64,000 nt of DNA, taken from positions 1 through 64,000 of the IMG/VR virus record IMGVR_UViG_3300045004_000088, one strand, 5' to 3'. The stretch is from a virus. Positions within the stretch are counted from its first letter, which is position 1, and each line of letters opens with the position of its first letter. A program made the translations under genes and the position numbers. Positions 29,887 to 29,960 of this stretch are shown piece by piece. The notes below the pieces were generated by a model. It worked only from the letters and a program-made list of their open reading frames with translations. It was not told the DNA's origin and searched no databases.

Positions 29887-29911
29887 GACTGCCTCCGGTT
29901 TGGAACGAAGC

Positions 29912-29921
29912 CAGTATAGAC
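29912..29921 (-). promoter_or_regulatory. GTCTATACTG motif immediately after a terminator, upstream of the 29886 operon
   Basis: Read directly. Confidence 0.45.
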
Positions 29922-29922
29922 A

Positions 29923-29960
29923 AAAACGGCCGGAAGTTAAACTTCCGGCCGTTTTTGTTT
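29923..29960 (-). terminator. intrinsic terminator CGGCCGGAAGT-ttaaa-ACTTCCGGCCG flanked by A5 and T5 tracts, downstream of the MVP-like gene
   Basis: Read directly. Confidence 0.7.

Follow-up and report, generated by a model that had tools for sequence, protein, structure and literature searches.

Extended -10 promoters of σ70 (TGnTATAAT) are independent of a -35 element. Thermus phage P23-45 uses -35-less middle and late promoters after remodelling region 4 of the host σ, and the AsiA-resistant promoters of the T4 era are of the extended -10 type. T4 late promoters carry TATAAATA at -10, use gp55 and have no -35, while the promoters of T7, SP6 and K11 end in CTATA (the -5 to -1 core) and those of T3 in CTAAA.

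For the σS (RpoS, σ38) promoters of E. coli and P. aeruginosa, which have no distinctive -35, the published -10 consensus is the heptamer CTATACT. In the extended form, TCTATACTTAA, K173 of σS is contacted by TC (-14/-13), and a further consensus form is KCTAYRCTTAA. It has been proposed that C(-13) does for σS promoters what TG does for σ70 promoters that have no -35. In addition, σS prefers T(-6) and an A/T discriminator, the reported upstream bases are TNGC, and in E. coli the protein FliZ binds σS-like extended -10 sequences. Alphaproteobacterial housekeeping promoters include CTTGAC-N17-CTATAT in S. meliloti and a Caulobacter RpoD -10 of GCtANAWC. Huge phages have been reported with σ70 and AsiA-like genes, and the regulatory signals of huge uncultivated phages are almost unknown. 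Here we show that a short box with the core CTATACT exists in such a phage, where it is enriched, uniformly oriented, conserved in relatives and set at a constant geometry to the genes that it faces.

Box copies in a giant phage genome

The analysed DNA, hereafter the window, is a stretch of 64,000 nt (positions 1-64,000 of IMG/VR record IMGVR_UViG_3300045004_000088) from a large tailed phage, uncultivated and giant. Its structural genes include baseplate gp25 and wedge genes, a VgrG-like spike and a sheath, and we take a 2599-aa ORF to be the tape measure. Other genes encode LAGLIDADG endonucleases, a CCA-adding-type nucleotidyltransferase, an AAA ATPase and a major-vault-protein (MVP)-like protein. 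The boxes are located in the leftward, non-structural gene block (8-33 kb). Positions 19972-33932 are identical to a Logan contig, and an identical MVP-like protein is present on a 253,983-bp JGI contig, with homologs on viral contigs of up to ~500 kb and in the huge-phage records LR756500-503 (462-735 kb).

Megablast with 12 kb of window sequence against the phages in GenBank gave no match, an IMG/VR scan with a single protein gave no close relative, and the tblastn matches of the MVP-like protein (38-41% identity) were to just three huge-phage records, unannotated and 462-735 kb long. A total of 240 loci came from alignment-based scans of three collections (IMG/VR, JGI metagenomes and GTDB). 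At 36-60% identity, nearly all of them are too diverged for the box to be shared, and the scan of GTDB for a clue to the host found distant bacterial MVP homologs only. Four syntenic relatives have 68-86% protein identity to the window, i.e., a contig carrying L002 and L245 (MVP-like protein 86% and AAA ATPase 85% identical), L003 (MVP-like protein 76%), JAWVGZ010000010.1 (586 kb; L004 and L246; MVP-like protein 75% and AAA ATPase 68%) and L247 (AAA ATPase 72%). K-mer enrichment in more distant relatives was set aside because codon bias dominated the signal. At the right end, a look-up of the 730-aa window protein gave no match; at the left end, an extension by 4.9 kb revealed no further box.

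The 10-mer GTCTATACTG has four exact copies in the window, all on the minus strand (9400-9409, 19177-19186, 20293-20302 and 29912-29921). A preliminary description of this DNA had placed it before three operon-initial genes. Those three copies are real, though one had been given a base off (as 20292-20301), and the fourth, at 19177-19186, had been overlooked. The longer context that it reported for the 20293 and 29912 copies is correct (TTTGTCTATACTG), and the variant that it noted near 20903 is GGCTATACTT at 20902-20911. With at most one mismatch the 10-mer occurs nine times in the window against 0.83 expected, a count reached in none of 100 shuffles. The core 7-mer CTATACT occurs six times against 0.75 expected, and no copy is on the plus strand. 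Of the TATACT hexamers, the six on the minus strand all have C at -13, compared with none of the three on the plus strand. The flanks of the copies are mutually unrelated, and thus the box is not a dispersed repeat.

The class-II box TTTTGTCTATACTGGC at 29910-29925 (-) lies upstream of a 136-aa gene (ATG 29886) and the genes that follow, which it would drive as a predicted promoter. TATACT occupies 29918-29913 with C(-13) at 29919, and the predicted +1 near 29906 would give a 5'UTR of 20 nt. Directly upstream, where the preliminary description had already seen one, is the intrinsic terminator of the MVP-like gene (29922-29957, -; stem CAAAAACGGCCGGAAGT/ACTTCCGGCCGTTTTTG, loop TTA), a 17-pair hairpin with a T-run (-32.3 kcal/mol, z = -6.4) that passes directly into the box. 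A second class-II box, GTTTGTCTATACTGAC at 20291-20306 (-), is upstream of a 368-aa secreted-protein gene (ATG 20258; predicted 5'UTR 29 nt), in a tandem arrangement with an upstream canonical promoter, TTGACA-17-GACAAT (20315-20343, -; 10/12 in a consensus scan). The TGA stop of the upstream gene falls within the TTGACA of this promoter, and the box follows 21-23 nt further on. The last codons (L-Y-W) of the 368-aa gene contain the class-II box GTTGGTCTATACTGGC at 19175-19190 (-), with a predicted leader of 66 nt to ATG 19105.

The remaining class-II box, CGGCGTCTATACTGCC at 9398-9413 (-), includes the exact 10-mer and is upstream of a 126-aa gene (ATG 9372; predicted 5'UTR 22 nt), then a 175-aa gene. 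The variant box ATAGGTCTATATTGGG at 10320-10335 (-), with the one-mismatch 10-mer GTCTATATTG at 10322-10331, is directly after a TAG stop and upstream of a 101-aa gene (ATG 10290; predicted 5'UTR 26 nt). The variant at 20902 (-), in a divergent intergenic region upstream of a 181-aa gene (ATG 20885), is without TG and has the AT-rich discriminator TCAAAAAA and a predicted 5'UTR of 11 nt. Each of the six start codons has a GGAG-like SD. Starts 9372 and 10290 match external Logan gene calls and 29886 also matches an external call; start 20885 was set from orthologous starts in relatives, the Logan call being shorter (158 aa, i.e., 20816). With the +1 placed 7 nt after the hexamer, transcripts are predicted to start at about 29906, 20287, 19171, 10316, 9394 and 20896, and predicted leaders are 11-29 nt at five sites and longest at 19177.

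Two antisense matches are probably due to chance, i.e., TTCTATACTG at 58532-58541 (-), within a plus-strand structural gene and with no minus-strand gene downstream, and the box-like TTTCGTCTATACGG within a gene at 25738-25753 (+). Given that ~0.75 chance copies of CTATACT are expected, the one at 58532 is probably the single chance occurrence.

At 9400 the box also lies in the loop of a hairpin (9389-9421, -), which the preliminary description credited with an 11-bp stem and in which we count 13 pairs, 11 of them Watson-Crick (-26.2 kcal/mol, z = -5.7). The hairpin is without a T-run and is therefore not a terminator, and in the orthologous region of L245, the one relative compared, the box is present and the hairpin absent (z = -0.18). 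A functional role in the element, as an N4-like hairpin promoter or as a terminator, was rejected on these two grounds, and we treat the hairpin as a local feature separate from the box. The same comparison bears on a reading of the box as an RNA-level signal, such as a 5'UTR element or a site of cleavage or processing on read-through transcripts. Such a signal would fit a box that is always on the sense strand, in leaders; at 9400, moreover, read-through RNA would fold into a hairpin with the box in its loop. However, that hairpin is not shared with L245, the window has no Rfam family match, and the sequence is that of a textbook -10 element. In addition, a very strong terminator precedes the box at the MVP site, where few transcripts would therefore extend into it, and we regard an RNA-level function as highly improbable.

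Conservation in syntenic relatives

CTATACT was found in the relatives at positions orthologous to all six window sites, and in three orthologous alignments the box is an invariant island in DNA of 46-69% identity. At the MVP site, TTTTTG(T/C)CTATA(C/T)TG is the sole invariant block of the intergenic alignment; every genome has, after the MVP gene, a strong terminator of differing sequence and then the invariant box. Upstream of the 368-aa gene just TTGACAA and CTATACT are invariant in five genomes, with the TTGACAA 38-40 nt upstream of TATACT and a spacer of 46% identity. The ortholog of the 9398 box in L245, at 13861, reads gtCTATACTg, and that of the 10320 box, at 12879, reads tagtCTATACTg. 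At the 20902 site CTATACTT is kept in L002, L004 and L247 together with an upstream ATCTAGTC block, and L247 has two further intergenic copies of CTATACT.

The 19177 site is invariant inside the coding DNA of four genomes. A rare leucine codon, CTA (3.3% of Leu codons), is kept there in all four, and in L247 a Trp is replaced by Tyr with the DNA box unchanged, both of which argue for selection on the DNA at this site.

In the window and relatives together, each of the 24 exact CTATACT copies shares its strand with the genes that flank it. Intergenic DNA accounts for 18 copies and the orthologous in-gene site for 4, and 2 are chance-like; copies at orthologous sites are not independent observations. 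A position weight matrix (PWM) built from the relatives alone ranked 29910 first among the window sites (22.3 bits), 20291 second (20.7 bits) and 19175 third, with 9398 in fifth place just behind the probable chance match at 58530. The copy at 58532 looks like a chance match. As an explanation of the recurrence, chance or the remnant of a repeated mobile sequence is effectively refuted by the shuffled counts, the unrelated flanks and the retention of the box at orthologous sites in four relatives, which leave it next to no probability.

Anatomy of the box and its reading as a promoter

Alignment of 24 sites (window and relatives, orthologous copies included) gave the consensus T(-17)T(-16)G(-15)Y(-14)C(-13)TATACT(-12..-7)G(-6). 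C(-13) is present at all 24 sites, as is a hexamer of TATACT or TATATT (C at -8 in 22/24), and thus the A(-11) and T(-7) of a TAnnnT -10 hexamer are found throughout. Conservation is lower at -17 (T, 17/24), -16 (T, 14/24), -15 (G, 19/24), -14 (pyrimidine, 20/24; T in half of the sites) and -6 (G, 17/24), and the information content is confined to about -18 to -6. The predicted +1 is a purine at 20 of the 24 sites, compared with 33-58% purine at neighbouring positions, and the conserved sites all face an SD and ATG 11-66 nt beyond the predicted start.

No consistent -35 was detected across the 24 sites. The best TTGACA match at 15-19 nt is at most 3/6 in 17 of them, the mean best score (3.29 vs. 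a background of 2.85) shows a slight excess that comes from a few sites, and TTGACA-18 is present only at L246 3585. At the 29912 site group the -35 region is filled by the terminator stem. The readings CCGACA-17 (20322) and TTAACT-16 (29940) were tried as a general feature and failed in the 24-site test. The preliminary description of a -10-like element without a recognisable -35 is borne out. Its suggestion of extended -10 dependence is supported in part: the bases adjoining the -10 are conserved (TG at -16/-15, C at -13), but the TG is one base further upstream than in the canonical TGn form (TG at -15/-14). In L246 an extra TATACT is 18 nt from a perfect TTGACA, giving a canonical TTGACA-18-TATACT, which indicates that the hexamer can act as an ordinary -10.

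The box and σS promoters have an identical core of 7-8 bp, (T)CTATACT, with C(-13) invariant, in a consensus that derives from E. coli and Pseudomonas, from which the phage host may differ. C(-13) adjoins a TATACT-like hexamer at 24/24 sites, with T or G at -14 in 14/24 and TATACT itself in 22/24. The -35 is degenerate or absent in both, and variant sites such as 20902 continue in σS fashion as CTATACTTCAA or CTATACTTTAA. Unlike σS promoters, the box occurs in a phage genome, has TGYC rather than TNGC upstream, and mostly has G(-6) and a GC-rich discriminator; an A/T-rich discriminator (TAA at -6 to -4) was seen only in the 20902-type variants.

Compared with extended -10 σ70 promoters, the box likewise has a strong -10 and a few upstream bases in place of a -35, but its TG is shifted and its C(-13) is invariant, a position at which the canonical motif has no preference. 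As in phage systems of this type, it would plausibly form a temporal class beside canonical -35/-10 promoters; no σ-remodelling factor was identified in the window. The C directly before TATA is shared with the -10 of alphaproteobacterial primary σ factors, and the CTATATT variant and a conserved TTTACA-17-CTATAAC (17084-17112) in the window fit alphaproteobacterial/Caulobacter patterns. However, alphaproteobacterial promoters are -35-dependent, whereas most box sites are without a -35, and the canonical promoters of this phage have no preference for C(-13). The box resembles T4 late and T7-group promoters in being short, invariant, AT-rich, -35-less and phage-specific. It differs in sequence from the T4 late element, and no gp55-like gene was found in the window; for the T7 group its conserved stretch is too short, and no RNAP gene was found in the window.

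From these patterns we infer the identity of the box as a promoter and the position of the transcription start. It is probably the -10 region of a σ70-family, -35-independent extended -10 promoter class. Conservation at the same spot in four relatives points to this reading, and the promoter proposed in the preliminary description is further supported by the invariance of the orthologous CTATACT, the gene-ward orientation, the SD/ATG spacing, the purine at +1 and the lack of a consistent -35. On this reading, the elements recognised by RNA polymerase holoenzyme would be T(-12)A(-11)TAC T(-7), the adjoining C(-13), Y(-14) and G(-15), a short T-tract and G(-6), and transcription would start at the purine 7 nt downstream. 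Boxes placed directly after stop codons or terminators would restart transcription of the leftward non-structural genes, each for the next gene or short operon, and the transcripts would carry leaders of 11-66 nt with an SD. Candidates for the reading enzyme are those with the host primary σ, a host σS-type factor or a phage-encoded σ. A phage factor that disables -35 recognition may make the box class temporal (middle).

Canonical TTGAC(A/G)-17/18-TAnnnT promoters are kept at orthologous places (window 32416, 14345, 15312 and 5326, all -), and this conserved set includes the promoter of the MVP-like gene. At 17084-17159 (-), TTTACA-17-TATAAC, here with C at -13 (gatCTATAACtg), comes after a strong terminator of 15 pairs, an arrangement kept in L245, L246 and L247. 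The ordinary promoters reported earlier at 14317-14345 and 17084-17112 are among these conserved elements. Judging from the conserved canonical promoters and the TTGACA-18-TATACT of L246, a σ70-type holoenzyme very likely transcribes the phage, with the box as a predicted second, -35-independent promoter class beside the canonical one. No σ or RNAP gene was detected among the 80 window ORFs scanned, which cover ~64 kb, the genome itself being at least 254 kb. A Sigma70_r4 match, considered as a σ gene, turned out to be the HTH of a LAGLIDADG homing endonuclease (51474-52493).

The box may instead be a promoter for a phage RNAP, single-subunit (T7-like) or phiKZ-like multisubunit (non-virion or virion), which would place CTATA just upstream of the start site. 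CTATA is common to three conserved boxes, i.e., CTATACT, CTATAAC (17084-17112) and GGCTATATAC directly before ATGs, and to the ends of the T7, SP6 and K11 promoters (CTAAA in T3). Jumbo phages frequently encode their own RNAPs, and most of the genome (at least 190 kb) is outside the window. On the other hand, ~12 bp are conserved vs. the ~20 bp typical of single-subunit RNAP promoters; a T7-like promoter would be conserved over ~18-23 bp (-17 to +6) and would have a cognate RNAP gene, whereas conservation here runs from about -18 to -6. A(-11) and T(-7) with a purine 7 nt downstream are σ70 geometry, and conserved sites have TTGACA or TTTACA at 17-18 nt from this hexamer or one like it. Neither the 80 window ORFs nor the Pfam marks of the genes fetched from the relatives revealed an RNAP domain, and we consider a phage RNAP promoter quite unlikely.

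An operator for a phage or host DNA-binding regulator was also considered, as GTnTAnAC is weakly and imperfectly palindromic, FliZ of E. coli binds such σS-like extended -10 sequences, and genes for HTH proteins and for an αCTD-like protein (see below) are present in the window. However, the orientation of the box is strictly one-sided relative to the downstream gene, its geometry to the SD and ATG is constant, and its base pattern is the one needed for contacts with σ regions 2 and 3. An operator would normally overlap a separate promoter, of which none was seen at the terminator-adjacent sites, and we judge this reading very unlikely.

The promoter class proposed here is of a type already known, and is notable chiefly in that its core matches the σS (RpoS) consensus exactly. 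It seems unlikely that an uncultivated huge-phage clade has fixed the exact σS extended -10 consensus as an internal promoter class. If it has, this may sustain transcription in starved, slow-growing hosts via the host σS or, alternatively, via a σS-like sigma of its own after shutting off -35-dependent σ70 transcription, and would amount to a temporal programme built on the general-stress sigma. The match could hint at the physiology of infection or at a host that is either an RpoS-bearing proteobacterium or one of the alphaproteobacteria; if the box is simply a strong host-type -10, it would be a useful annotation and unsurprising. Together with the canonical TTGACA-17-TAnnnT promoters and GGCTATATAC, it would provide a first promoter map of the clade. 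The box allows operon boundaries to be placed at terminator-promoter junctions, and yields a testable hypothesis on the sigma exploited by the phage.

Further elements of the window

A different box, GGCTATATA(C/A), which has the CTATA core in common with the minus-strand CTATACT box, is present at 33060-33075 (+) and 25858-25876 (+), and also at 7873-7881 (-), 7905-7913 (+) and 20922-20930 (+). Only 2-8 nt separate it from the ATG of plus-strand genes, an SD being absent, and it is kept with an upstream GGAGTCATTTA block in L002, L003 and L004. This placement suggests a leaderless or very-short-leader promoter class, possibly one that serves late genes.

A structured intergenic element of ~190 nt at 13717-13907 (-) has orthologs in L245 (9295-9485), L246 (9536-9722) and L247 (9340-9520). 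It has the invariant blocks TTGGGGAAGTCrGCGGGCGG and TGCGCA, a terminator hairpin at its end and 49 predicted pairs, 9 of them with compensatory changes. The element had no match in Rfam and is a candidate for a new phage non-coding RNA or leader.

Downstream of the 29912 box, the operon contains the gene for a 245-aa protein (28575-29312, -) that is 44% identical to an L003 protein with the Pfam domain RNA_pol_A_CTD. On the basis of this similarity we read it as a phage αCTD-like (helix-hairpin-helix) protein, which may be a transcription factor or a decoy.

The MVP-like family is a conserved, terminator-flanked gene on many huge-phage contigs, and proteins with ~40% identity to the phage version occur widely in bacterial MAGs, including those of Myxococcota and Cytophagales (GTDB loci L165-L244). 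In the window the gene is split (29972-32334, -) into a 108-aa ORF (32008-32334), 85% identical to residues 1-99 of an 864-aa homolog, and then a 679-aa ORF in another frame, joined by a GTGA overlap. Relative to homologs of ~880 aa, ~80 residues are apparently absent, and the split could be a frameshift, a deletion or an assembly error.

The tail/baseplate module of the window is interrupted by likely mobile insertions, i.e., the LAGLIDADG homing endonuclease at 51474-52493 (+), which has C-terminal HTHs, and a 477-aa ORF of low GC (43%) at 42259-43692 (+).
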